A stretch of DNA of 64,000 nucleotides from an uncultured Candidatus Melainabacteria bacterium (lineage in GTDB: Bacteria > Cyanobacteriota > Vampirovibrionia > Gastranaerophilales > Gastranaerophilaceae), in contig CAMUPF010000008.1 in the NCBI GenBank assembly GCA_947090755.1, positions 3,901 to 67,900 on the forward strand, given 5' to 3'. Position 1 is the stretch's first letter, and every line of letters begins with the position of its first letter. This document shows, one piece after another, positions 1,774-64,000 of the stretch. Both the position numbers and the translations under genes were made by a program. The notes beneath the pieces are model-generated. The model ran no database searches and was not told the origin of the DNA. It worked only from the letters and a program-made list of their open reading frames with translations.

Positions 1774-1806
1774 TAGAAGAGGGGCAAATATCTTGCCCCT
1801 GTTGGA

Positions 1807-2947
1807 TTAGCGCTTGATACATCTTATAAGAGTTCCGCCGGATGTCCGTTCTTTAAGCATTCTGTCACCAGGCGCAAAGCCTATATAATAAGCTTTGTCC
1901 GCAGAAACGATTGTACTTGACCAGTATGAATTTGTGCCGTCCTCCAGTCCCCATAGTGTTCTGTTGAAAAACATTGAGGATAATTCTTCTATGTTTGGCA
2001 GCCTGCTTTCGCTGTCAAGTTGCTGGCACAATCGACCGGCATTTATTTGATTTCCCGCGGGAGCATTTTGAGGAAGCGGCAATGGCGCTACGACGACGGT
2101 ATCTGTCGGATAAAGCGCTGTAATTGCACCCATATCCTTGCCAAAAGTATTAGGGCCTTTGTTGCCGTTTAAGTCAAAAACAAAGTTTGCACACATCGTA
2201 GGCTGTGTGTATTCTCCGGTATTGGCAAGCCCCTGATTTGAGTTATGAAACCCGCAATTAGGATTATAGTAAACAACAATACTTTCGCCGTTTTGAGTTT
2301 CAAACGCCGCGGCTTTCGTATTTGTCTGGTTATACACGAAACTTGCTCCGTTAACGCTGTTTACGTGAGAACCCGAGAACATTGAATTTAAATCTGCCAG
2401 TGTTTTTGGAAACGATGAAATGGTTTGACCTTTTAGTGTTGTGAAAGTTGAGGTAATTCCGCAATCTGCGAGGTGTTCAGCGTCACATATATTGTTAATT
2501 TTAAGAACTTTTGCTAACCCTTCTGTAACGAAAGTTTCTGCGGCAGTGTCAGTTGTATCGTTTAATGTTCCGTAGCCGTTGAGTGATGGCATTAATGCGA
2601 TGGCCTGAGAGAATCTTGCATAAAGTGCCTTGCGTTGTGTGTTCCATGTGCGTTCGTTAATGTTACCCGTCAAACTAGGCAGCGTAATGGCCGCAACCAC
2701 GCCGATTATGGTTAAGGACAGCAGGATTTCGGCCATGGTAAAGGCCAAGCCGAGCAGAGCCACGGAGCAAGGCTTGCCTTGCGAAGAGACGAGCGTGCGA
2801 CGGTCAAGACCGCGCTCTTGACCGCTAACGCGAGCGGTGGCGTTTAACGCGAGGCGCAGTACCGGCGTTGCGTTAGCGTGCTCGGCTTGCCCCCCCCCCC
2901 CTACTGTACAGGCCCATATTACAAGGGGTTTCAGCTTTTGTGTTCAT
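1807..2947 (-). CDS. type IV pilin-like (prepilin) protein with DUF1566/Lcl-like C-terminal domain, paralog 1; frame broken at homopolymer tract
   Basis: ORF 1807..2763 carries A/FTMAEILLSLTIIGVVAAITLPSL (Phe+1, Glu+5 prepilin motif) and a C-terminal RLPNIEEL..YWSST..IRCIKR. SD GGAGG plus ATG at 2947 is one frame off and stops at 2873-2875. The pilin frame itself is open from 2943 downward. Confidence 0.7.
2764..2889. repeat. GC-rich hairpin-rich 126-nt block inside the leader-coding region of pilin paralog 1
   Basis: Stems gcaaggc/gccttgc (2767-2782), ggtcaaga/tcttgacc (2802-2823) and gctaacgc/gcgttagc (2824-2831 with 2870-2877). GC content is far above the flanks. No counterpart in paralogs 2 and 3. 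Confidence 0.6.
2890..2901. repeat. homopolymeric C12 (G12 on the coding strand) tract
   Basis: Counted directly: c at 2890, ten c at 2891-2900, c at 2901. Confidence 0.95.
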
Positions 2948-2976
2948 ATTATATACCTCCAAATTTTTATATTTTT

Positions 2977-3005
2977 ATTTTAAACTACGTTTTAGGCGCT
3001 GTCAA
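2977..3005 (-). promoter_or_regulatory. sigma70-like promoter for pilin paralog 1
   Basis: Minus strand reads TTGACA (3005-3000), 17-nt spacer, TAAAAT (2982-2977), about 30 nt upstream of the ATG at 2947. Confidence 0.5.
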
Positions 3006-4364: not shown

Positions 4365-4529
4365 GAAAAAATTTCGTTTGCGAAATTTTTGAGTGACATT
4401 TAGACAGCGCAGCCATGCGCGGCCCAAGGTTCAGCGCGAGCGAGCGGAGTGCGAAGGACGGAAGTCCGAAGGCACGTTTTCCGCGAGTCGAGCAAGACAG
4501 CGGGGCGAAAATGGCGGAGTACTGCTTTT
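4365..4529 (+). repeat. GC-rich repeat element, copy E2 (degenerate)
   Basis: AT hairpin gaaaaaatttcg/cgaaattttt (4365-4390), core tttgagtgacatttagacagcgcag (4388-4412), 3-prime end ggcggagtactgctttt (4513-4529). Shares these blocks with copies at 48750 and 50825. Confidence 0.65.
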
Positions 4530-4530
4530 C

Positions 4531-6894
4531 ATGAAATTCAAAGAGTGGATTTATAATAAAAACGCAAAAGAAGAAGTCGCTTTAACAAAGAGGCTTCTTC
4601 TTTCGCGCGGGTTAAAAGAGCCCGATGAAATCGAGGAGTTTTTAAATCCTCTTGAAATGAAATTAACCTCGCCTTATGACTTTACGGATATGCAAAAGGC
4701 CGTGGACAGGGTTGTTAAAGCTATTGTCAATCGTGAAAAAATAGTTGTTTACGGGGATTTTGACGCTGACGGGGTTACTTCCACCTCACTTCTTGTTAAA
4801 ACTCTTTCCCATCTGGAGGCGAATGTTGATTATTTTATACCACATCGTGAGAAAGAGGGGCACGGCCTTGATTCTGCGGCTCTGGTGAAAATTATCACTG
4901 CTAAAAAGCCGAAACTTATTATCACGGTTGATAACGGTATCAGCAATGTTAAAGAAGTTGCGTTTTTGAAGAGTTTTGGGGTCGAAACGATTATTACTGA
5001 CCACCACGAGGCAAAAGATGATTTACCGGCGGCACTTGCAATAATTAACCCGAAAGCGCCGAATGCTTTATCCGAATCGCTTTCTGCCAGAAAAATTAAG
5101 GAATTAACGTATCTTGCAGGCGTTGGAGTGGCGTTCAAACTTGCGCAGGCGTTATTAGAAAAATTTGATAAAGTGGAATTTGCGCTGAAAATTCTTCCGC
5201 TTGTTGCAGTCGGAACCGTTGCAGATTTAGTGCCGCTGCTTGGCGAAAACAGATGTTTCGTTAAGCGGGGATTGGAACTTATATTAAACCATGCAGGCCT
5301 GCGTGAACTGTTAAACAGTGCGGGCTATTCGCTTGAAAAACCTGTTACTTCCGAAATCGTTGCCTTTGGAATTGCACCGCGTCTAAACGCTTCAGGGCGT
5401 CTGGAAAGCGTTGATAATGCAATGAAACTCCTTTTGAGCGACAATCCTGCAGAAATTCAGATGGCAGTTCAATCCTTGAATGAATTCAATTCTATCCGTC
5501 AGACCCTTTGCAGCGATATCTTTGCTCAAGCCGACGAAATGTGGCAGAAAGAAGGCGCAAAAAGTTCTGCGGTCGTTCTGTTTCATCCTGAATGGCATAT
5601 CGGGATTATCGGAATTGTTGCGTCAAAATTTGTTGAAAAATACCATAAACCTGCATTTTTAATGACTTATTCAGAAGAAACCCAACAATATCGCTGTTCT
5701 GCGCGTGGTGTTAAAGGGTTAAATATTTTCGACATACTGGATGAAAATGCAGAACTTTTTGACGGTTTTGGCGGTCACGAACTTGCCGGCGGTTGTTCTT
5801 TTTCTAAAGAAAAATCCTCCTTTGAAGAAGTTAAATCGGCTATTAATAAAACTGTTAAAACAATGTTGAACGGTGAGGAATTAAAACCATTTATTGAAGT
5901 GGATTTGAAGCTTTCTCCTACAGATATTAATGAGGGGCTCCTCGAGCAATTAGAAATTTTCGAACCTTTCGGTGCATCTAACCCTAATCCGGTTTTTGCC
6001 GTAGAAAATCTTGTTATTAAAGATAAAAAGCTTATGGGGCAGGATAAAAACCATCTTAAAATTATTTGTGACGCCGGCGGGCATGAACTTACCTGTATAT
6101 GGTGGCAAAGAGGTGATGTGACGCTTGATATTGGCGACAGGCTTGATGCGCTTTTTCACCCTAACCTTAACGAATTTAACGGGAATAAGTATTTGCAATT
6201 AATCTTGCAGGATGTGCATTCCGAAGCAATTGAATACGAAAAAGATGCGGTTATACAAAATGAATTGAAATTTTTTGATCACCGCAAAAAAACAAATATT
6301 TTGCCGATGGTCAATGACTATGTTAAAACCTCAAAGTTTAATATACGAGTTTTTGCGGAAAGCAAAAACGTTATTGACACACTAAAGCCTTTTCCGGCTC
6401 TATCTGAGCGGGTTTTTAACCGTAATGGACTTGAAGCATGCGATTCTGTTATGTTATTTGATTATCCCGCTGACCGGCATGCGCTCGGCGAAATTCTTGA
6501 AAAAACCGGTGCGGGAACTATCCATCTAATGAATTATGATATTAAGCATTTTTCTCAGGAAGAACTGCTCCACACAGCATTTAAAATGTTAAAATATTCG
6601 GTAAACTATAACAATGGCGTTGTTGAGCTGTACAAATTTGCAAGTTTTTTAGGTAAATCATACGAGGTTTTAGGCCTTCTTTTTTCTGTTTTTGAGGAAA
6701 CCGGCCTTATTAAAATTATTTCAAAAACATCTCAGTCAATTACGATAACCCTTGACGAAACAGTAAATATTTCGGGAGTTCTTCACTGCACAAATTATCA
6801 AAGCCTTATGGAAACAGCCGTAGAATGTGAAGATTTCCAGACATTTTTGCTCATCGGTGACCTTGACAAGGTTCAGGAAGTATTTGCTATATAA
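4531..6894 (+). CDS. recJ: single-stranded-DNA-specific exonuclease RecJ
   Basis: DHH motifs DFDADGVTS and ITDHH, DHHA1 region GGHELAGG. ATG at 4531 (MKFKEW). The upstream 46 codons of the tracked ORF lie in the GC-rich repeat. Confidence 0.9.
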   Translation: MKFKEWIYNKNAKEEVALTKRLLLSRGLKEPDEIEEFLNPLEMKLTSPYDFTDMQKAVDRVVKAIVNREKIVVYGDFDADGVTSTSLLVKTLSHLEANVDYFIPHREKEGHGLDSAALVKIITAKKPKLIITVDNGISNVKEVAFLKSFGVETIITDHHEAKDDLPAALAIINPKAPNALSESLSARKIKELTYLAGVGVAFKLAQALLEKFDKVEFALKILPLVAVGTVADLVPLLGENRCFVKRGLELILNHAGLRELLNSAGYSLEKPVTSEIVAFGIAPRLNASGRLESVDNAMKLLLSDNPAEIQMAVQSLNEFNSIRQTLCSDIFAQADEMWQKEGAKSSAVVLFHPEWHIGIIGIVASKFVEKYHKPAFLMTYSEETQQYRCSARGVKGLNIFDILDENAELFDGFGGHELAGGCSFSKEKSSFEEVKSAINKTVKTMLNGEELKPFIEVDLKLSPTDINEGLLEQLEIFEPFGASNPNPVFAVENLVIKDKKLMGQDKNHLKIICDAGGHELTCIWWQRGDVTLDIGDRLDALFHPNLNEFNGNKYLQLILQDVHSEAIEYEKDAVIQNELKFFDHRKKTNILPMVNDYVKTSKFNIRVFAESKNVIDTLKPFPALSERVFNRNGLEACDSVMLFDYPADRHALGEILEKTGAGTIHLMNYDIKHFSQEELLHTAFKMLKYSVNYNNGVVELYKFASFLGKSYEVLGLLFSVFEETGLIKIISKTSQSITITLDETVNISGVLHCTNYQSLMETAVECEDFQTFLLIGDLDKVQEVFAI

Positions 6895-11839: not shown

Positions 11840-12979
11840 ATGAGCGTTGCAAAAGGTCAAAATTGCAGTATTAATTTTTTGAGATTTCTTTTTACATTCG
11901 GGATTTGCTTTATGCATCTTGTTTGTCAGGTGATTTCTCCCTATATTGCATATCCGTTGAACTATGGTAATTTTGCGGCACCTTCTTATGCTGTTGAATT
12001 ATTCTTCATAATGGCCGGTTTTTTCTTGTTTTTCAATAAAAAGCCGCTGGAGGAATACATTTCAAACCGTATAATAAGATTGTGGCCGTTGCTGGTGTTT
12101 TCAACTATTATTGCAGGGATTTTGAGAGCTTTGCATATATCAGGTATGTCATTGAAGTTTGATGATATTCTTAACTGCCTGTTTTTACAGGGAACAGGTC
12201 TGATGCAAGGCGGGGCGACTAATGGACCGGCGTGGTTCGTGGGTGTTTTGTTCTGGGTTTCTGTAATATATTATTATTGCAAAAGAGTACTTGGCAAGAA
12301 ATCATTTATTGCATTAATGATTGTTATGGCGGGTATTGGTTTGATAGTATTCGGAACCACAGGCAAGGCAAATCCGTTTGAAGGAGTCAGAGGATTCATT
12401 CTTCCCGCATGGGGGGGGGGGGGGATCTCTATGATGATGTTACGCGGTTTTACGGCTATAGGCATCGGATGTATTCTGGGAAAATTTCAGGAAATTTTTG
12501 CCGGAAGTCATGCTGCGCAGACCCTGCAAAGTGTTTCGGGCTCAAAGAAGCTTTTCACGGCTTTAGAAGTGATATTTTTCGTCGGACTGTGCGCAGTCTT
12601 ACTGGGAGGCAGCCTGATGAATATATATAGTTCTTATTTATTGGCTATGGGCTTATTTTTAATCGTGTTTTTCTTGTTTTTTAATAATTTAGGATATTTT
12701 TCCTCAAAAGTTCTAAACAGAAAAGTGTTTAATCTTCTCGGAGCTTATTCATACGCCATTTATATAATGCAGAATGTAGTATTTTATATTGTAGATTATT
12801 GTTTGAAAACTTACGAAAATCTAATTCCACATACAAATCTGGTTATAACAATTTCGATGATTTTATTTATTGTAATAGGAATTATTTCTTATTATCTGGT
12901 AAATTTCATCGTAGAAAAAACGGTACAGTTATACAATTTTATTCAAAGAGATAATATTTTAAAGGAGACAACTTTATGA
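11840..12979 (+). CDS. membrane acyltransferase family 3 (putative O-acetyltransferase), contains in-frame G14 tract
   Basis: Multi-TM ORF. The N-terminal FLRFLFTFGICFMH motif is typical of acyltransferase_3. ORF open from 11807, ATG 11840 follows AGGAG. The tract encodes WGGGG. Confidence 0.7.
   Translation: MSVAKGQNCSINFLRFLFTFGICFMHLVCQVISPYIAYPLNYGNFAAPSYAVELFFIMAGFFLFFNKKPLEEYISNRIIRLWPLLVFSTIIAGILRALHISGMSLKFDDILNCLFLQGTGLMQGGATNGPAWFVGVLFWVSVIYYYCKRVLGKKSFIALMIVMAGIGLIVFGTTGKANPFEGVRGFILPAWGGGGISMMMLRGFTAIGIGCILGKFQEIFAGSHAAQTLQSVSGSKKLFTALEVIFFVGLCAVLLGGSLMNIYSSYLLAMGLFLIVFFLFFNNLGYFSSKVLNRKVFNLLGAYSYAIYIMQNVVFYIVDYCLKTYENLIPHTNLVITISMILFIVIGIISYYLVNFIVEKTVQLYNFIQRDNILKETTL
12411..12424 (+). 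repeat. homopolymeric G14 tract (in frame, ON)
   Basis: Counted directly: 12411-12420 plus 12421-12424. Confidence 0.95.
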
Positions 12980-17973: not shown

Positions 17974-18695
17974 ATGAAAAGATTTCTAAGAAAAATTTTG
18001 GGTAAAAATAAAACGCAATATTATGACATTTGCGGGGATAATAATAAATTAATTATTATTGAAAATGGTGTTGAGCGTCTGGCGAACAAGGAAACTATTC
18101 TCGGTTTGTGGGTTTCGATACACGGAAATAACAATACCGTAAAGTTAGAACTTCCGATTCATTTTGAAAATTCATCTATTATAATTTCGGATTCTGATGA
18201 GGCTGACATTTTTATCCGCAAGACTCAGCATCACGTTAAAAATTTTTCGGTAAATTCACGCCTGCATAGCGGCCATAAACTATTTATTGATGAAGATTTT
18301 TATTGCAACGGGGCAACAATTTTGCTAAGAGAAGAAAACGCGTCGGTAAAAATAGGTAAAGATTGTATGTTTTCGTGGGGAATAACTATATGGACTTCTG
18401 ACGGACATTGTATTTTTGATAATACAACCGGCGAACTGTTAAATGACCCATCCGGGGGGGGGGGGGCCTCATCGGTAATCATGTATGGGTAGGCTGCAAC
18501 GTTAATTTATTGAAAAATTCGAAAATCCCTGACAATTCGGTCGTTGCGTTAGGGGCAATTATTTCTAAAAGATTTGATGAGGAAAATATTTTGCTCGTTG
18601 GCACAAATGAAGTTAAGAAAAGAAATATTCGATGGACAAGAGATTTTATAACTGATTATAAAAGGAGTAAATGTGAAAGTATTAATAGATTCTGA
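17974..18695 (+). CDS. left-handed beta-helix (hexapeptide) acetyltransferase, split by G13 tract (OFF frame)
   Basis: The upstream ORF ends 26 nt after the tract. The other frame reads LIGNHVWVGCNVNLLKNSKIPDNSVVALGAIISK, a classic hexapeptide transferase C-terminus. 14 or 11 G would fuse the two parts. Confidence 0.75.
18454..18466 (+). repeat. homopolymeric G13 tract
   Basis: Counted directly: 18454-18460 plus 18461-18466. Confidence 0.95.
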
Positions 18696-20197
18696 TTATT
18701 TTTTTATAAGGGATATGTATTATCGTTCCTGCGGCCATACACTTAATACTATTAATATTTTGAAACGTTTTTTCGGCGAAGATTTATTAAAGGATTTCAG
18801 GTGTGTTATTTCTGAAACTGTTTATTACCAGTTAAATGAAGAAGAATTATCCGGTATTAATCCTGTAGTGATTTTTGACAGGGAATTGCGGGATATTTTT
18901 GAGGATAAATTTATATCGCACAATGAAATTGTCGAAAAGTTTTATTACGGCAATTTGACCCCTAACAATCTACAGGATTTGAAGGCGCTTTATTCTCGCA
19001 AACTGGAAGGTTTTGTGCCGGATTTAGTTATGCAATTTGAATATCATAATAAATGTTATGACGATATTTTCCCTAAGGCGTTTAAATTAACCTTTCAGGG
19101 CGGACTTTTTAAAAGGGGAATTGGGCCTGAAACTTATATTATTGACCCCTCAGGCAGCTTTAAGGATTCATCTTTAAATATCTTTCGTGATGAAATTAAC
19201 AATTTCGTAATTTCTGAACAACAAAACACACTGATTGATAACTTTAAACGCCGCCTTAGTAATCTTATAAAAGAGAATACATCTTTTATTTCTACCTTAT
19301 TAGCGCCTTATAAAGAGAAGTTTGATTATCTTGTTTTGCTTCCGTTACAAATGAGTAATCATTATGGTTTTGATACTGAAACAGGATTTAAAACGCAGTA
19401 TGACTATCTTGAATATGTACTGGATAATGTTCCTAAAAATGTCGGGGTAATCGTAACAGAACACGACCATGGCCGTTTTCTTGAAGAAGGAACCTTCGGA
19501 AAAGGCGGATTCTTAGAATGGTTTGAAAACAAGTATGAAAATTTGGTATACATTAAAGAACTGCGGGGGGGGGGGGGGGTATTCCTCTCCGTCAATATAT
19601 TTCTTGCCGGAGGTTGATGCTGTGATAAATGTTTCGTCCTCAGTCGCCCTGACTGCAACTTTATTCGATAAAAGAATAATATCACTTGGTAAAACTTATA
19701 ATAATTGTTTTAAGGATACTCAGGGATTAGAAAACATTATTGAAGTTTTAAGCAAACCGGTTAGAAATAAAAATTCGTTTTTATTCTGGTTTTTGACTAA
19801 ATATGTTTTTTTCGAAAAACAGTTGAATGATAAATCTTTTATGTACCAATATTTATGTGATTCCATAGAAAAATTCAAGAATGAAGGAGTAACTTTTGCT
19901 TACTTTACGCAAATGAATGGAATCGAAGAGGCTTGTGATTCTATTGCAGGGTATATTGAAAATGTTTTCATTACAGAGCGCCGCAGGCAGGAAGATGAAA
20001 GGCTTGCGCAAGAGGCAGAAAGGCTTGCAAGGGAAAAGGAAATAGAAGAAGCAAGACTACGCGAAGAGGAGCGAAAACGGCGGATTGATAAAAAACGTGA
20101 AAGATGTAACCGGTTCGGAATCTATTACGAGGCAAAACATATTATTATCGGCCTGTTCGGGCTTAAAATAAAATTTAGAAACTATTTGGAGGAATAA
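18673..20197 (+). CDS. capsule-synthesis (KpsC/KpsS-like, PF05159-like) protein with C-terminal charged coiled coil, split by G15 tract (OFF frame)
   Basis: YLVLLPLQMSNHYGFD and VIVTEHDHG before the tract. YSSPSIYFLPEVDAVINVSSSVALTATLFDKRIISLGK after it, in the -1 frame. 14 or 17 G would fuse them. Family call by motif resemblance. Confidence 0.55.
19565..19579 (+). repeat. homopolymeric G15 tract
   Basis: Counted directly: 19565-19570 plus 19571-19579. Confidence 0.95.
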
Positions 20198-29325: not shown

Positions 29326-29396
29326 AATTAATAAAGAAAGGCAGGCTGATCCTGTTCTACAATCGAACCCGAGTGAAACTTGGGAGAAAGGAAATT

Positions 29397-30415
29397 ATGA
29401 AAAACAATATTGTAAACATTTTGACAGGGGGGGGGGGCCTCTCTTAACAGGCTTCACTATGGCGGAGATACTTCTGTCATTAACAATAATCGGTGTGGTT
29501 GCGGCGATAACGCTTCCGTCGCTGACAGGCAACATTAACGAACGCACATGGAACACCCAGAGAAAAGCACTTTATGCCCGTATGAGTCAGGCGATTGCCC
29601 TAATGCCGGCGTTGAACGGTTACGGAACTTTGACAGAGGGCAACGAATCAACGTCAGCCGTCGACACCGCTGCCGAAACTTTCGTCACGGAAGGCCTTTC
29701 AAAAGTTCTCAAAATTAATAATATTTGTGACTCCGACCACCTCGCGGATTGCGGTATACCTACCCAATTTAATAATATCGGTGGAGATGTTGTATCTACC
29801 TGGCCTCAAACTTTTGTTGCTTTGAACGGGATGTTTAACGGTTCCTATGAAAACTATGATGGTTCAAGTGTAAATGTTATTTGGACTTATTCACAAACAG
29901 ATACGAAAGTCGCGGCATTTGAAACCGCAAATGGAGAAAGCGTTGCTGCGTATTATAATCCTTATTGTGTAGGTAATTTTAATGAAACAAATGAATATTA
30001 TATTCAACCTAAAGTTTGTGCAAATTTTATATATGACTTGAATGGATCTAAAGGACCTAATACTGTTGGGAAGGACATTGGGTTTATGACGGTATTTTAT
30101 CCTACTGATTCAGTTGTAGTTGCGCCTCATCCTTCGGTTAGACTTGCGACAAACCAGCGGGTTGTGCAGGCTGAGGCAGGGGCGGCCTGTTTCGCGCTGG
30201 ATAATGAAACAAGAGTTCCCAATATTCATGAGATTGCGTCTATGTTTACGAATAGGCTGTTAATGAAATCTACAATCACTGAAACAGGAACTAATGGGAT
30301 TTGGTCGGGTTCAAAATATTCTGCGTCTTATGACTGGTTATTCAACTGGGCTTGTGGAAAATGTATGTTGAAAGACCATGCTTGGACAGGAAATGTTTGG
30401 TGTATAAATCGTTAA
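29397..30415 (+). CDS. type IV pilin-like (prepilin) protein with DUF1566/Lcl-like C-terminal domain, paralog 2; leader interrupted by G11 tract (OFF frame)
   Basis: RBS GGGAGAAAGGA, ATG 29397, MKNNIVNILT, then G11, then TAA at 29445. With 12 G the frame reads GGGGPLLTG/FTMAEILLSLTIIGVVAAITLPSL and joins ORF 29459..30415. C-terminal RVPNIHEI..IWSGS..VWCINR. Confidence 0.8.
29427..29437 (+). repeat. homopolymeric G11 tract
   Basis: Counted directly: 29427-29430 plus 29431-29437. Confidence 0.95.
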
Positions 30416-40430: not shown

Positions 40431-41408
40431 ATGAAAAGATTTTTTACGGTGAAATCTGCCGCTTTTACTATGGCCGAAATTCTGTTGTCTTTGACAATCA
40501 TCGGTGTTGTTGCGGCGATTACGTTACCGTCTTTGACCGGTAACATTAACGAACGAACATGGGCGACTCAAAAGAAAGCGCTTTATGCACGTATGTCACA
40601 GGCAATTCCGTTGCTTGATTCTATGAATACTTATGATGACGCCGAGTCTTTCATAGCAGGCGCATTGAATAAAGTTACTAAAATCAATAACGTTTGCGCG
40701 CAAGACCATTTGGAAGATTGCGGTATTAACAAAGATTTGTTAGGAAGACTTGCTGACGGTACGACAACTTCTTTCCCTGAAACCTGGTCTGCTTTAGGTA
40801 TTGATAAGCAATTCTCTTATGCTTCAGCAGCGGATGATACGGCAGAAGCAACTTCAAACAAAAAATTGAGTGCTAATCAGGCAATGGTTGCAGCATTTGA
40901 AACCGGAAACGGTGAATCAATTGTTCTTTATTACAACCCTGATTGTACTGCCGATCAGGAACAGGCGCCAAATGCCATTGTCGACGGTTCCGGTACAAAC
41001 TACATAGACATGTTTGATCACGTATGTATCAATATGATTTATGACTTGAATTCAAACAAAGGACCAAACGCAGTTGGTAAAGATATTGGATTTATGACTG
41101 TATTCTATCCTTCAGACGCAACGGTTGTTTCTCCGGTTCCTTACGTTCAGTCATCAAGCTCTGCGACTTGTGACAGCGAATACAGATTGCCTAACAGATT
41201 CGAAGCTGCGGCATTCGCTCTTAACTCTACTTTAATCAGCGCTACGGCAGAAGGCCCGTATTTAACATCAACTAAGGCGTCAACCGGTAATGATACTTAT
41301 GTTTATATTCAAGATAAAAATTCAAGCGGTGAAATCAAAGCTTATACTAAAAAGATAACCGACGGCGCCTCTGCAGGTGTTTCATTCTCCAGATGCGTAA
41401 AACGTTAG
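40431..41408 (+). CDS. type IV pilin-like (prepilin) protein with DUF1566/Lcl-like C-terminal domain, paralog 3 (no homopolymer tract)
   Basis: MKRFFTVKSAA/FTMAEILLSLTIIGVVAAITLPSLTGNINERTW. C-terminal YRLPNRFEAAAF..SRCVKR. Confidence 0.8.
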   Translation: MKRFFTVKSAAFTMAEILLSLTIIGVVAAITLPSLTGNINERTWATQKKALYARMSQAIPLLDSMNTYDDAESFIAGALNKVTKINNVCAQDHLEDCGINKDLLGRLADGTTTSFPETWSALGIDKQFSYASAADDTAEATSNKKLSANQAMVAAFETGNGESIVLYYNPDCTADQEQAPNAIVDGSGTNYIDMFDHVCINMIYDLNSNKGPNAVGKDIGFMTVFYPSDATVVSPVPYVQSSSSATCDSEYRLPNRFEAAAFALNSTLISATAEGPYLTSTKASTGNDTYVYIQDKNSSGEIKAYTKKITDGASAGVSFSRCVKR

Positions 41409-48375: not shown

Positions 48376-48849
48376 GTGACTTCTTATCTTTTGACTTTTA
48401 CGGTTTATACAATGGCTATGGTTGGCATGATTTTTCTTGCGCTGTTTGCTTATAAAAAGTTTTCTGTGCAAAATAATCGTGTTTCGCAATCAAATTTTCT
48501 TGAAGTTGAAGATTGCGTGACTCTCGGTATGCGTAAACAGTTGTATGTTGTAAGAGCAGGAGAAGAAAAATTTTTAATTGCGTCTGATGCAGAAAGAACG
48601 ACATTCCTTTCAAAACTTCAAAACTCAGAAACTCCACGAAAAGAAATTAGTTCCTTCGAGGCTATCGGACATTTTTACCCTGAGGAAGAGCGCGAAAATG
48701 TAAGGAAGGACGCTACGGCAGTTTTGAGAAATATAATAAGCACCCCGAGAAAATTTCGCGAAGAGCGAAATTTTGGAGTGGGGTATGAGACAGCGAAGCC
48801 GGGTACGGCCCGCGGTTCAGCGGGGCGGAGCGGCGAAGAACTGCTTTAG
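48376..48849 (+). CDS. fliO: FliO-like flagellar export protein; C-terminal tail encoded by the GC-rich repeat
   Basis: GTG start after AGGAGGA. Single N-terminal TM segment (TFTVYTMAMVGMIFLALFAY). Position between fliM-like and fliP. Confidence 0.6.
   Translation: MTSYLLTFTVYTMAMVGMIFLALFAYKKFSVQNNRVSQSNFLEVEDCVTLGMRKQLYVVRAGEEKFLIASDAERTTFLSKLQNSETPRKEISSFEAIGHFYPEEERENVRKDATAVLRNIISTPRKFREERNFGVGYETAKPGTARGSAGRSGEELL
48750..48848 (+). repeat. GC-rich repeat element, copy E3
   Basis: Hairpin aaaatttcgc-gaaga-gcgaaatttt (48750-48774), core ttggagtggggtatgagacagcgaag (48773-48798), end ggcgaagaactgcttta (48832-48848). Confidence 0.7.
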
Positions 48850-48862
48850 GAGAAAGAAGATA

Positions 48863-50824: not shown

Positions 50825-50933
50825 AAATCTCGCGATAAGGAACGTGAGCGAGATTTGGGAGTGGCGTATGAGACAGCGCAGTCGCGGGTTGACTCGCGTG
50901 AGCGAGGCAAGCAGGCGACGGAGAACTGCTTTA
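50825..50933 (+). repeat. GC-rich repeat element, copy E4
   Basis: Hairpin aaatctcgc-(14 nt)-gcgagattt (50825-50856), core ttgggagtggcgtatgagacagcgcag (50855-50881), end ggcgacggagaactgcttta (50914-50933). Confidence 0.7.
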
Positions 50934-63932: not shown

Positions 63933-64000
63933 TTGACGAAAAAAGAAAGATGATACATAATGGTTATATAAAGAAAGGCAGGCTGATCCTGTTCTACAAT
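63933..64000 (+). promoter_or_regulatory. second copy of the pilin-family promoter and 5-prime leader (gene continues beyond the window)
   Basis: TTGACG 63933-63938, 17-nt spacer, CATAAT 63956-63961, then ataaagaaaggcaggctgatcctgttctacaat, identical to 29331-29363. Confidence 0.6.

Follow-up and report, generated by a model that had tools for sequence, protein, structure and literature searches.

A pilin-like gene of gut Melainabacteria with a predicted poly-G switch and a structured repeat as the probable in-frame passenger of its leader

The minus strand of a 64,000-nt stretch of DNA from an uncultured Candidatus Melainabacteria bacterium (the window, to whose numbering all coordinates refer) holds a pilin-like gene, here called W3, with a tract of 12 G near its 5′ end and, just downstream of it, a guanine/cytosine-rich (GC-rich) block that includes a 118-nt core unit (the label W3 also denotes this copy of the unit). 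In our judgement W3 is probably an intact, currently OFF phase-variable type IV pilin-like gene that carries, as an in-frame passenger of its leader, a structured repeat resembling repetitive extragenic palindromic (REP) sequences and Rickettsia palindromic elements (RPEs). The same arrangement recurs, as far as sequence can tell, across dozens of related genes.

The W3 gene and its poly-G tract

An earlier note on this DNA had placed here a GGAGG and an ATG (2947), 12 G (2901-2890), a stop (2873-2875), and a pilin frame running from 2943 to a stop at 1807, which 11 or 14 G would fuse to the ATG frame. All of these coordinates were confirmed, and the locus is laid out as follows.

2977..3005, minus strand: sigma-70-like promoter, TTGACA-17 nt-TAAAAT, with 11 of 12 matches to the consensus, about 30 nt upstream of the Shine-Dalgarno (SD) sequence and ATG
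2956..2960, minus strand: SD sequence GGAGG, 8 nt 5′ of the ATG (sequence)
2902..2947, minus strand: leader prefix, ATG plus 15 codons (MNTKAETPCNMGLYS, after which R begins), of the 'AENPC' prefix subfamily
2890..2901, minus strand: poly-G tract of 12 G, predicted phase-variation switch, codons 16-19 of the leader (sequence)
2873..2875, minus strand: TAA closing the ATG frame at 12 G, 24-aa product (sequence)
2861..2889, minus strand: variable linker of 29 nt (inverted-repeat search)
2743..2860, minus strand: core unit of 118 nt (ACTGCGCCTCGCG...TGCTCGGCTTGGCC), forward (nhmmer, 118.6 bits)
1807..2742, minus strand: mature pilin-like protein (FTMAEILLSLTIIGVVAAITLPSL..., 311 aa plus stop), with a weak C-terminal Lcl_C-like match
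1780..1800, minus strand: terminator-like hairpin followed by a T-rich tail (sequence)

The ATG (2947-2945) opens MNTKAETPCNMGLYSR ahead of the G tract, and this type of prefix is found also in the homologous loci L075, L083, L043, L009, and L024. W3 is OFF at 12 G because of tract length alone, its expression signals being intact, while the pilin frame is stop-free over 380 codons. With 11 or 14 G the gene would be ON, yielding a 379-aa product with a 68-aa leader (the earlier note had estimated about 70 aa). W3 has a defining feature of contingency loci, a homopolymeric 5′ coding tract of at least about 8-9 nt that sets the frame. The predicted mature protein begins at a prepilin motif, A|FTMAEILLSLTIIGVVAAITLPSL, with Glu at +5, and its weak C-terminal match is to Lcl_C (PF07603, formerly DUF1566). 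Against the TIGR02532 cutoff of 16.3, W3 scores 13.5, and two paralogs in the window, listed below, score 16.7 (paralog 1, with G|F, above the cutoff) and 14.4 (paralog 2). The Pfam N_methyl score of W3 lies under its cutoff as well; the best partial matches are all to pilin or pseudopilin N-terminal models, and NCBI names one homolog, P0119, prepilin-type.

The fused W3 protein retrieved 2,301 homologs, and many of their N-termini translate the same block in frame (e.g., P0002, MKEIKSVNILSGGGGSPEPVASATLGLRLALNATARACSRKRGFACRALDSAQGKPCSVALLGLA|FTMAEILL). A scan of species-representative genomes, with at least 446 family matches confirmed by tblastn, placed the family in Candidatus Gastranaerophilales / Gastranaerophilus (Melainabacteria), and a single closed 2.02-Mb chromosome supplied at least 14 of the 75 family loci that were fetched. 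The family is greatly expanded in Gastranaerophilales, with poly-G in most of its leaders. The raw DNA of 81 loci, used with no gene-caller filtering, contains 98 distinct pilin 5′ ends with a tract of 8-16 G at the same place as in W3. Where a start could be assigned (92 5′ ends), 27 are ON and 65 are OFF; about one third ON would be expected if phase were random. Orthologs differ in tract length (15 vs. 13 G in L026 and L031, and 14 vs. 13 G in L025 and L055). The spacing between tract and Phe codon, 15 nt in the basal design, exceeds 30 nt in 68 cases and reaches a maximum of 552 nt, and basal leaders have 6-15 nt where the block sits in W3. Block-bearing genes that are ON with a complete open reading frame (ORF) are found in L075 (G14) and in L001-L006 (proteins P0002, P0005, and P0009).

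The additional sequence in these leaders is kept open in the frame of the pilin. When stops were counted from the Phe codon as anchor, 50 of the 56 distinct inserts that measure 100 nt or more were stop-free in the pilin frame, vs. 0-6 of 56 in each of the other five frames and 3.5 in composition-matched shuffles; a subset of 36 inserts had 0 stops in 8,286 nt of pilin frame vs. 65-175 per other frame. That the inserts are stop-free in the pilin frame and so rarely elsewhere strongly supports ribosomes starting at the upstream ATG and reading across both tract and inserts. Insert length modulo 3 (46/14/8) was considered as a test and dropped in favor of the Phe-anchored count, since it depends on the phase of the prefix.

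These results bear on two ways of explaining W3 without a switch. The first, a lesion that killed the gene, had been raised in the earlier note: W3 would be a pseudogene inactivated by insertion and frameshift, with the block as debris. It is true that the ATG is out of frame at 12 G and that automatic annotation fell back on a GTG with no SD sequence. However, promoter, SD sequence, ATG, and terminator are all intact, the 380 codons of the pilin frame are stop-free, and the mature part is protein-constrained (see below). Moreover, at any time two thirds of the family are out of phase, other genomes have the identical unit in frame and ON with a complete ORF, and a sister strain keeps the ORF. 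The evidence for translation through the inserts excludes a dead gene, and we hold this account to be highly improbable. The second would have the unit bring its own start at the annotated one (P0001), GTG 2763 inside the repeat, so that a 7-aa leader, MALLGLA|FTMAE, is made and expression is independent of poly-G. Leaders of 7 aa are typical of type IVa pilins. Gene callers chose this GTG, and it is invariant, with the codons that follow, in all forward copies of the unit. Still, no SD sequence lies in range (the nearest AAGG is 13 nt off and sequestered in a 3′ hairpin described below), it would go unexplained why 50 of 56 inserts keep the frame open as far upstream as the poly-G, and the proposal is inapplicable to reverse copies or to other modules. 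We consider it very unlikely.

Two other members of the family in the window show simpler leader designs.

29397..30415, plus strand: paralog 1, basal design with ATG, 11 G (29427-29437), 15 nt, and G|FTMAE, no insert
40431..41408, plus strand: paralog 2, no poly-G, leader MKRFFTVKSAA|FTMAE, in frame as is

Paralog 1 is OFF at 11 G; with 12 G it would be ON with the 19-aa leader MKNNIVNILTGGGGPLLTG|F. The 19-aa leader to which the earlier note compared that of W3 does belong to the paralog at 29397, but would be made only if its tract had 12 G. An identical 33-nt segment occurs at 63968-64000 and at 29331-29363, upstream of paralog 1, in each case just after a promoter-like site, and a fourth pilin paralog probably starts just past the end of the window. 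A small hairpin lies directly 5′ of the AGAAAGGA ribosome-binding site (RBS) in the 5′ untranslated regions of many related pilins.

Long G tracts in the window extend beyond the pilin-like genes. At 39% GC, it contains five G/C runs of at least 11 nt. Poly-G tracts lie within ORFs at 12411-12424 (14 G), 18454-18466 (13 G), and 19565-19579 (15 G), all three in an apparent surface-polysaccharide cluster at about 7.6-20 kb, where a hexapeptide-acetyltransferase-like ORF near 18.45 kb is broken by its G tract. G-tract contingency loci seem to be used widely in this genome. In the Gastranaerophilus metagenome-assembled genome (MAG) JAZUCM01, the pilin tract is nearly always 11 G (L017, L023, L033, L038, L040, L057, L064, L067, L068, L076, L078, and L080) and the leaders continue ...CFAKTSDPCERKITEVNMSKNLG|FT, with an internal ATG 5-6 codons ahead of the cleavage site; either nearly all of these genes would be OFF by one base, or the internal start would be used, with the tract upstream of it.

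Boundaries, conservation, and fold of the core unit

The earlier note had taken 2764-2889 to be the insert. This 126-nt block is indeed GC-rich (68% vs. 39% overall, the richest 126-nt stretch in the window), in frame, and stop-free, but its limits need correction: the inserted DNA is 2889-2746, 144 nt or 48 codons, and the conserved unit reaches 2743, in the -1 Ala codon. We place the boundaries there because an inverted repeat bounds this segment and homologous copies agree with it. The inverted repeat (2743-2756 / 2879-2892) is 14 nt long, with 13 of 14 positions complementary and a perfect core of 11 nt, such that the first 11 nt of the linker (CAAGCCGAGCA, 2889-2879) are an inverted copy of the 3′ terminal 11-mer of the unit. 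At its other end, the W3 unit finishes in the codons GGC TTG GCC (G-L-A, -3 to -1) at the A|FTMAE site. Removal of 2889-2746 in silico leaves a normal short prepilin leader, MNTKAETPCNMGLYSRGGGA|FTMAEILL. The terminal inverted repeat was found in W3 and L075, while the 5′ arm is missing from L001, L023, L022, L062, and L018. Reverse-orientation copies in L043 and L083 also have CAAGCCGAGCA adjoining the poly-G, and L083 is without the second arm.

BLAST and profile searches for the 118-nt core over 1.29 Mb of sampled DNA found the unit in 15 distinct pilin leaders, 11 times forward and 4 times reversed, with all 24 profile matches inside leaders. The 3′ end of the forward copies lies exactly at the -1 codon in each of the 11, and in the 4 reversed copies that same end adjoins the poly-G. 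No second copy of the block was found in the window. When metagenomes were scanned with the invariant 5′ core, there were two matches, both in pilin leaders, in a Joint Genome Institute (JGI) collection that seems poor in the gut lineage.

Presence of the unit in both orientations, together with the flanking repeat, raises the possibility of an intragenic inverton, in which a recombinase would flip the block between the 11-14-nt inverted repeats as a second, independent switch of the leader. Such invertons are documented in gut bacteria (PMC10028968). One prefix subfamily has the unit forward (W3 and L075) as well as reversed (L083 and L043) right after poly-G-CAAGCCGAGCA, and a flipped W3 copy would gain one in-frame TAA, that is, an OFF state. 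However, a single orientation is seen in six independent assemblies of one locus (L001-L006) and in the window vs. the sister strain; both orientations are seen only across different loci. The 5′ repeat arm is missing in most forward copies and the second arm in L083, no recombinase gene was identified nearby, and insertion of a repeat in either orientation accounts for the same data. We rate an inverton as unlikely.

Conservation of the block points to its nucleotide sequence. Between the W3 core and its counterpart in L075 (G. phascolarctosicola) identity is 97%, against about 45% for CtpA and about 57% for the pilins of these distant genomes. Across the block, identity is 0.87-1.00 at codon position 3 and 0.84-0.95 at positions 1+2, whereas in the 135 nt past the cleavage site it is 0.87-0.97 at positions 1+2 and 0.31-0.53 at position 3. 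The change from one pattern to the other falls exactly at the -1 codon, and the block is without codon periodicity. Because its third positions are as conserved as the first two, unlike those of the adjacent pilin codons, the block is conserved as nucleotide sequence and not as peptide; the mature pilin, with positions 1+2 conserved and position 3 saturated, is under protein-level constraint. Furthermore, reverse copies are read in other phases than forward copies.

Copies also exist outside pilin genes. An exhaustive HMMER search of 1.84 billion representatives with the block peptide gave 12 matches, two of them in non-pilin contexts (L087 and L088). In L087 the unit occurs twice, within a 282-nt tandem duplication that follows rpsN in an operon for ribosomal proteins, and a neighboring protein there is 62% identical to one from a Gastranaerophilales locus. 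In L088 it occurs once, downstream of a SurA-like gene, and is split by a nested insertion. The annotation of the L087 duplication as a hypothetical protein of 198 aa (P0121) probably reflects a spurious ORF; past the duplication (L087:372-968) there is a promoter-like TTGACA...TACAAT and an inserted gene for an Fe-dependent repressor.

The earlier note had described three strong stem-loops in the block. Folding energy is unexceptional, with z = -0.4, -0.85, and -1.4 vs. dinucleotide shuffles and neither strand better; it was set aside as evidence of structure, and covariation was used instead. RNAalifold on ten copies gave a closing helix with one long and one short hairpin, which in W3 are as follows.

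2790..2836, minus strand: central long hairpin, apical stem GGTCAAGA (2823-2816) / TCTTGACC (2809-2802), loop GCGCGG; 16 pairs, 5 with double-sided compensatory changes
2767..2782, minus strand: 3′ hairpin GCAAGG-CAAG-CCTTGC; 6 of 6 pairs covary, 100% of cells paired
2759..2841, minus strand: closing helix GCCAC (2841-2837) / GTGGC (2763-2759) around both hairpins; 5 pairs, 100% paired

Variants of the 3′ hairpin include CAAGA/TCTTG, CTTGC/GCAAG, and CAAAA/TTTTG, and the closing helix has one covarying pair, A-U to G-C, in the reverse-orientation subfamily. Over the whole of alignment A2, 97.7% of cells are paired vs. 30-43% with partners slid, and ten pairs show double-sided changes vs. 5.9 ± 1.5 in shuffles. 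Adding the two intergenic copies raises this to 12 of 27 pairs vs. 5.3 ± 1.6, a value reached by 0 of 500 shuffles, with 96% of cells paired vs. 28-45% with partners slid. Since they covary across copies, two hairpins and a closing helix are retained as real in place of the three stem-loops. At gathering thresholds Rfam 15 has no match to the block (the best permissive match, Ref68, scores 15 bits against a cutoff of 44, E = 0.49), and on seven long-leader loci it gave nothing relevant to other leader modules.

Both the fold and the codon pattern tell against the block being ancestral coding sequence kept for the function of a leader peptide, a possibility which the earlier note had named as fatal to an inserted element and which was tested here. 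Dozens of homologs do translate ...LRLALNATARA...QGKPCSVALLGLA. Yet third positions in the block are as conserved as positions 1+2 next to codons saturated at the third, substitutions track base-pairing and not amino-acid similarity, and elsewhere this DNA is read from the opposite strand and in other phases. Untranslated intergenic copies keep the fold, and basal leaders hold 6-15 nt in place of the block. This explanation is hardly credible.

Leader inserts turn over between closely related genes. The mature pilins of L026:13499 and L031:14036 share 98% identity, yet the inserts in their leaders (255 vs. 432 nt) are unrelated, and further pairs differ similarly (89% identical, 321 vs. 15 nt; 84% identical, 15 vs. 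207 nt). On a shorter scale, the sister strain L084 (ENA ERZ13657772 NODE_236) is 99.95% identical over 5.7 kb, with the 12 G and the block identical; there are three differences, two of them nonsynonymous and in the 15-codon prefix (T7N and Y14N), and the ORF is kept. A syntenic look-up through the neighboring AAA gene returned the sister strain with its identical block and short contigs ending inside the pilin N-terminus. This look-up yielded no syntenic relative of W3 free of the block, and the closest copy, L075, is not a syntenic ortholog; an exact-protein look-up of the called pilin P0001 gave no match.

The unit is itself a target of insertion. In L046, L014, and L061 it is broken up, with no loss of the open frame, by further elements that lie at the GCGTT^AAACGC loop and within or beside the central hairpin loop. 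More generally, several module families make up the mosaics seen as leader inserts, and some of these families are also intergenic (e.g., a TGTCATCC...GGATGACA palindrome), and a nested family is found between genes in the window as well, at 4434-4507 upstream of recJ. No target motif, duplication, or terminal repeat is consistently present where the nested 'family B' is inserted, and its junctions point to no particular transposition mechanism.

Several observations concern these other modules. A GC-rich intergenic element, ...GAGACAGCG...GGCGGAG[T/A]ACTGCTTT, has three copies in the window (4393-4530, about 48740-48850, and about 50830-50930), each directly 5′ of the RBS and ATG of a downstream gene (recJ starts at 4531). 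The copy at 4393-4530 holds the nested unit 4434-4507, whose family occurs also in pilin leaders and inside the block of L046, L014, and L061. The 3′ end of the intergenic element, GGCGGAGTACTGCTTTT, is found again upstream of a pilin promoter in L082. The other GC-rich patch of the window, at 4401-4526, is no copy of the block and belongs to different element families. In many leader mosaics, near-palindromic CCGGCTGAGCCGG (translated PAEPV) directly follows the poly-G and is found a second time close to the 3′ end, and several mosaics have a duplicated '...AFTMAARLSR...' segment that resembles cleavage-site codons; either segment could mark insertion or recombination junctions.

A passenger repeat weighed against a selected element

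Among the suggestions of the earlier note, a tolerated in-frame structured or mobile element fares best, with a structured repeat family, an open frame, conservation at the nucleotide level, both orientations, and two intergenic sites. According to this reading, slipped-strand changes in the length of the 12-G tract would gate expression of W3. The leader would stay in the cytoplasm and be removed by prepilin peptidase, which we infer to cleave even the 68-aa leader; as the leader is predicted to be cleaved off, a stop-free insert that keeps the frame would leave the mature pilin unchanged, and selection on inserts would be a filter for an open frame only. The unit itself would act like a mobile or recombining repeat of the REP type or of the miniature inverted-repeat transposable element (MITE) type, given its occurrence in both orientations, the nested insertions at loops, the turnover between near-identical orthologs, and the intergenic copies.

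A number of points weigh against a simple passenger. Differences in tract length are known from consensus assemblies only, W3 falls just under the cutoff of the prepilin N-terminal model, and prepilin-peptidase cleavage of leaders of 68 to >150 aa is a prediction. The terminal inverted repeat is limited to some copies (W3, L075, and reverse copies), and neither the junctions of W3 (G-run|CAAGCC ... GGCTTG|GCC) nor those of nested inserts show a target-site duplication. No transposase, REP-associated tyrosine transposase (RAYT), or recombinase linked to the unit was identified, in a transposase search that was not exhaustive and with RAYTs not searched for. Invariant unpaired motifs between the covarying helices resemble functional nucleic acid. 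Moreover, leaders are enriched in such DNA, with about 20 kb of insert-like sequence in the roughly 3% of the sample that they make up vs. 3.4 kb elsewhere, and forward copies always end precisely at the -1 codon; this enrichment and precision would also be consistent with a targeted mechanism or with a cis-acting function under selection.

The leading rival is accordingly a cis-acting role, in which the unit would be selected for its mRNA structure, or for a DNA structure beside the G tract, and would be in frame only through lying in coding sequence. It might tune translation, mRNA stability, the tightness of the OFF state, or the slippage rate of the tract. Core identity of 97% between genomes as distant as CtpA at about 45% suggests, covarying helices set between invariant motifs speak for selection on the unit itself, as do the fixed end of forward copies at the -1 codon and the strong enrichment in leaders. 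Such a role is harder to square with the 4 of 15 leader copies that are reversed, so that the mRNA holds the complement, with the many pilins that have no insert or unrelated modules, with close orthologs that swap modules, and with the copies in a ribosomal-protein operon and after a SurA-like gene. Neither does the unit match Rfam, have a U-tract past its hairpins, or show the spacing of a frameshift stimulator. We regard a cis-acting role as possible, at low confidence. The RNA-level regulator proposed in the earlier note is less likely because the unit occurs in either orientation and outside pilin genes.

Tentatively, and as a doubtful proposal in its own right, the stretch from poly-G to cleavage site might be more than neutral space, namely a dedicated landing pad or cassette-exchange site where a DNA-level mechanism targets or swaps structured GC-rich modules at pilin 5′ ends; in a pilin-like family as large as this one, it would amount to a new composite kind of contingency locus. 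Insertion might then be directed by hairpins or single-stranded DNA, or recombination might be set off at the G tract, as 12-15 G could form non-B DNA, and the modules could in turn affect switching or expression.

Known systems and implications for gut Melainabacteria

REPs are extragenic by definition, are present in hundreds of copies, and have an associated RAYT transposase. The unit shares with proteobacterial REPs, bacterial interspersed mosaic elements (BIMEs), and REP doublets forming hairpins (REPINs) the form of short GC-rich imperfect palindromes with covarying stems, in either orientation, the mosaic clusters of several unit types, and the location within operons or after genes (L087 and L088). 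Unlike REPs, it is mostly intragenic and translated, and judging by the 1.29 Mb sampled it seems to have few copies outside leaders. RPEs are elements of about 150 bp found in frame inside ORFs (Ogata et al., 2000, as summarized in PMC10969869). As that source presents them, RPEs and the W3 unit are both hairpin-forming palindromic repeats of about 100-150 bp, in frame and stop-free within genes, to all appearances tolerated by the protein that hosts them, and present outside genes as well. In the same account, however, RPEs lie in many unrelated housekeeping genes and their peptide stays in the mature protein, whereas 15 of 15 intragenic copies of the W3 unit are in pilin leaders. Elements of the W3 type also differ from the RPEs described there in stacking and nesting up to 552 nt between poly-G and cleavage site, in belonging to another lineage, and in showing no sequence similarity to them.

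For the switch, the closest parallels are Neisseria pilC, reported to have a genic G/C tract of 9-20 (PMC5953494, citing Jonsson et al., 1991), and the poly-G genes of Campylobacter, which are homopolymeric-tract contingency loci (PMC8355987). In what these sources describe, as in the family of W3, a long 5′ coding G tract in a pilus or surface gene sets ON or OFF by its length and differs between strains. The G tracts in the surface-polysaccharide-like genes of the window (12.4, 18.4, and 19.5 kb) add to this likeness. In contrast to both systems as these sources present them, the W3 tract forms part of a class III (prepilin) leader, in the gene for the pilin-like subunit; such tracts recur throughout a paralog family of very large size and are coupled to a segment rich in insertions. 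Switching is here a prediction from sequence. Invertons described from gut bacteria (PMC10028968) resemble the unit as short intragenic segments with flanking inverted repeats that occur in both orientations across loci; in contrast to invertons, no flipping was seen at a single locus, most copies are without one arm, and no recombinase was identified.

The literature searched held no description of poly-G pilins or of leader repeats in Melainabacteria. Gene callers mis-start or split such genes, and the annotation of W3 itself begins at a GTG within the repeat; MAG annotations would therefore miss both the poly-G switch and the true N-terminus. If our reading is true, these genes would provide a natural example of repeat DNA inside coding sequence, in leaders of 70 to >180 residues made of nested hairpin repeats, where a disposable, cleaved leader needs only an open frame. 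Questions raised by it include how long a leader a prepilin peptidase tolerates and what mobilizes the repeats. For the gut Melainabacteria, which are uncultured and widespread in animal and human gut communities, it would mean a large, so far undescribed repertoire of phase-variable surface filament genes, and would suggest that their surfaces vary stochastically to a degree comparable with Neisseria or Campylobacter.

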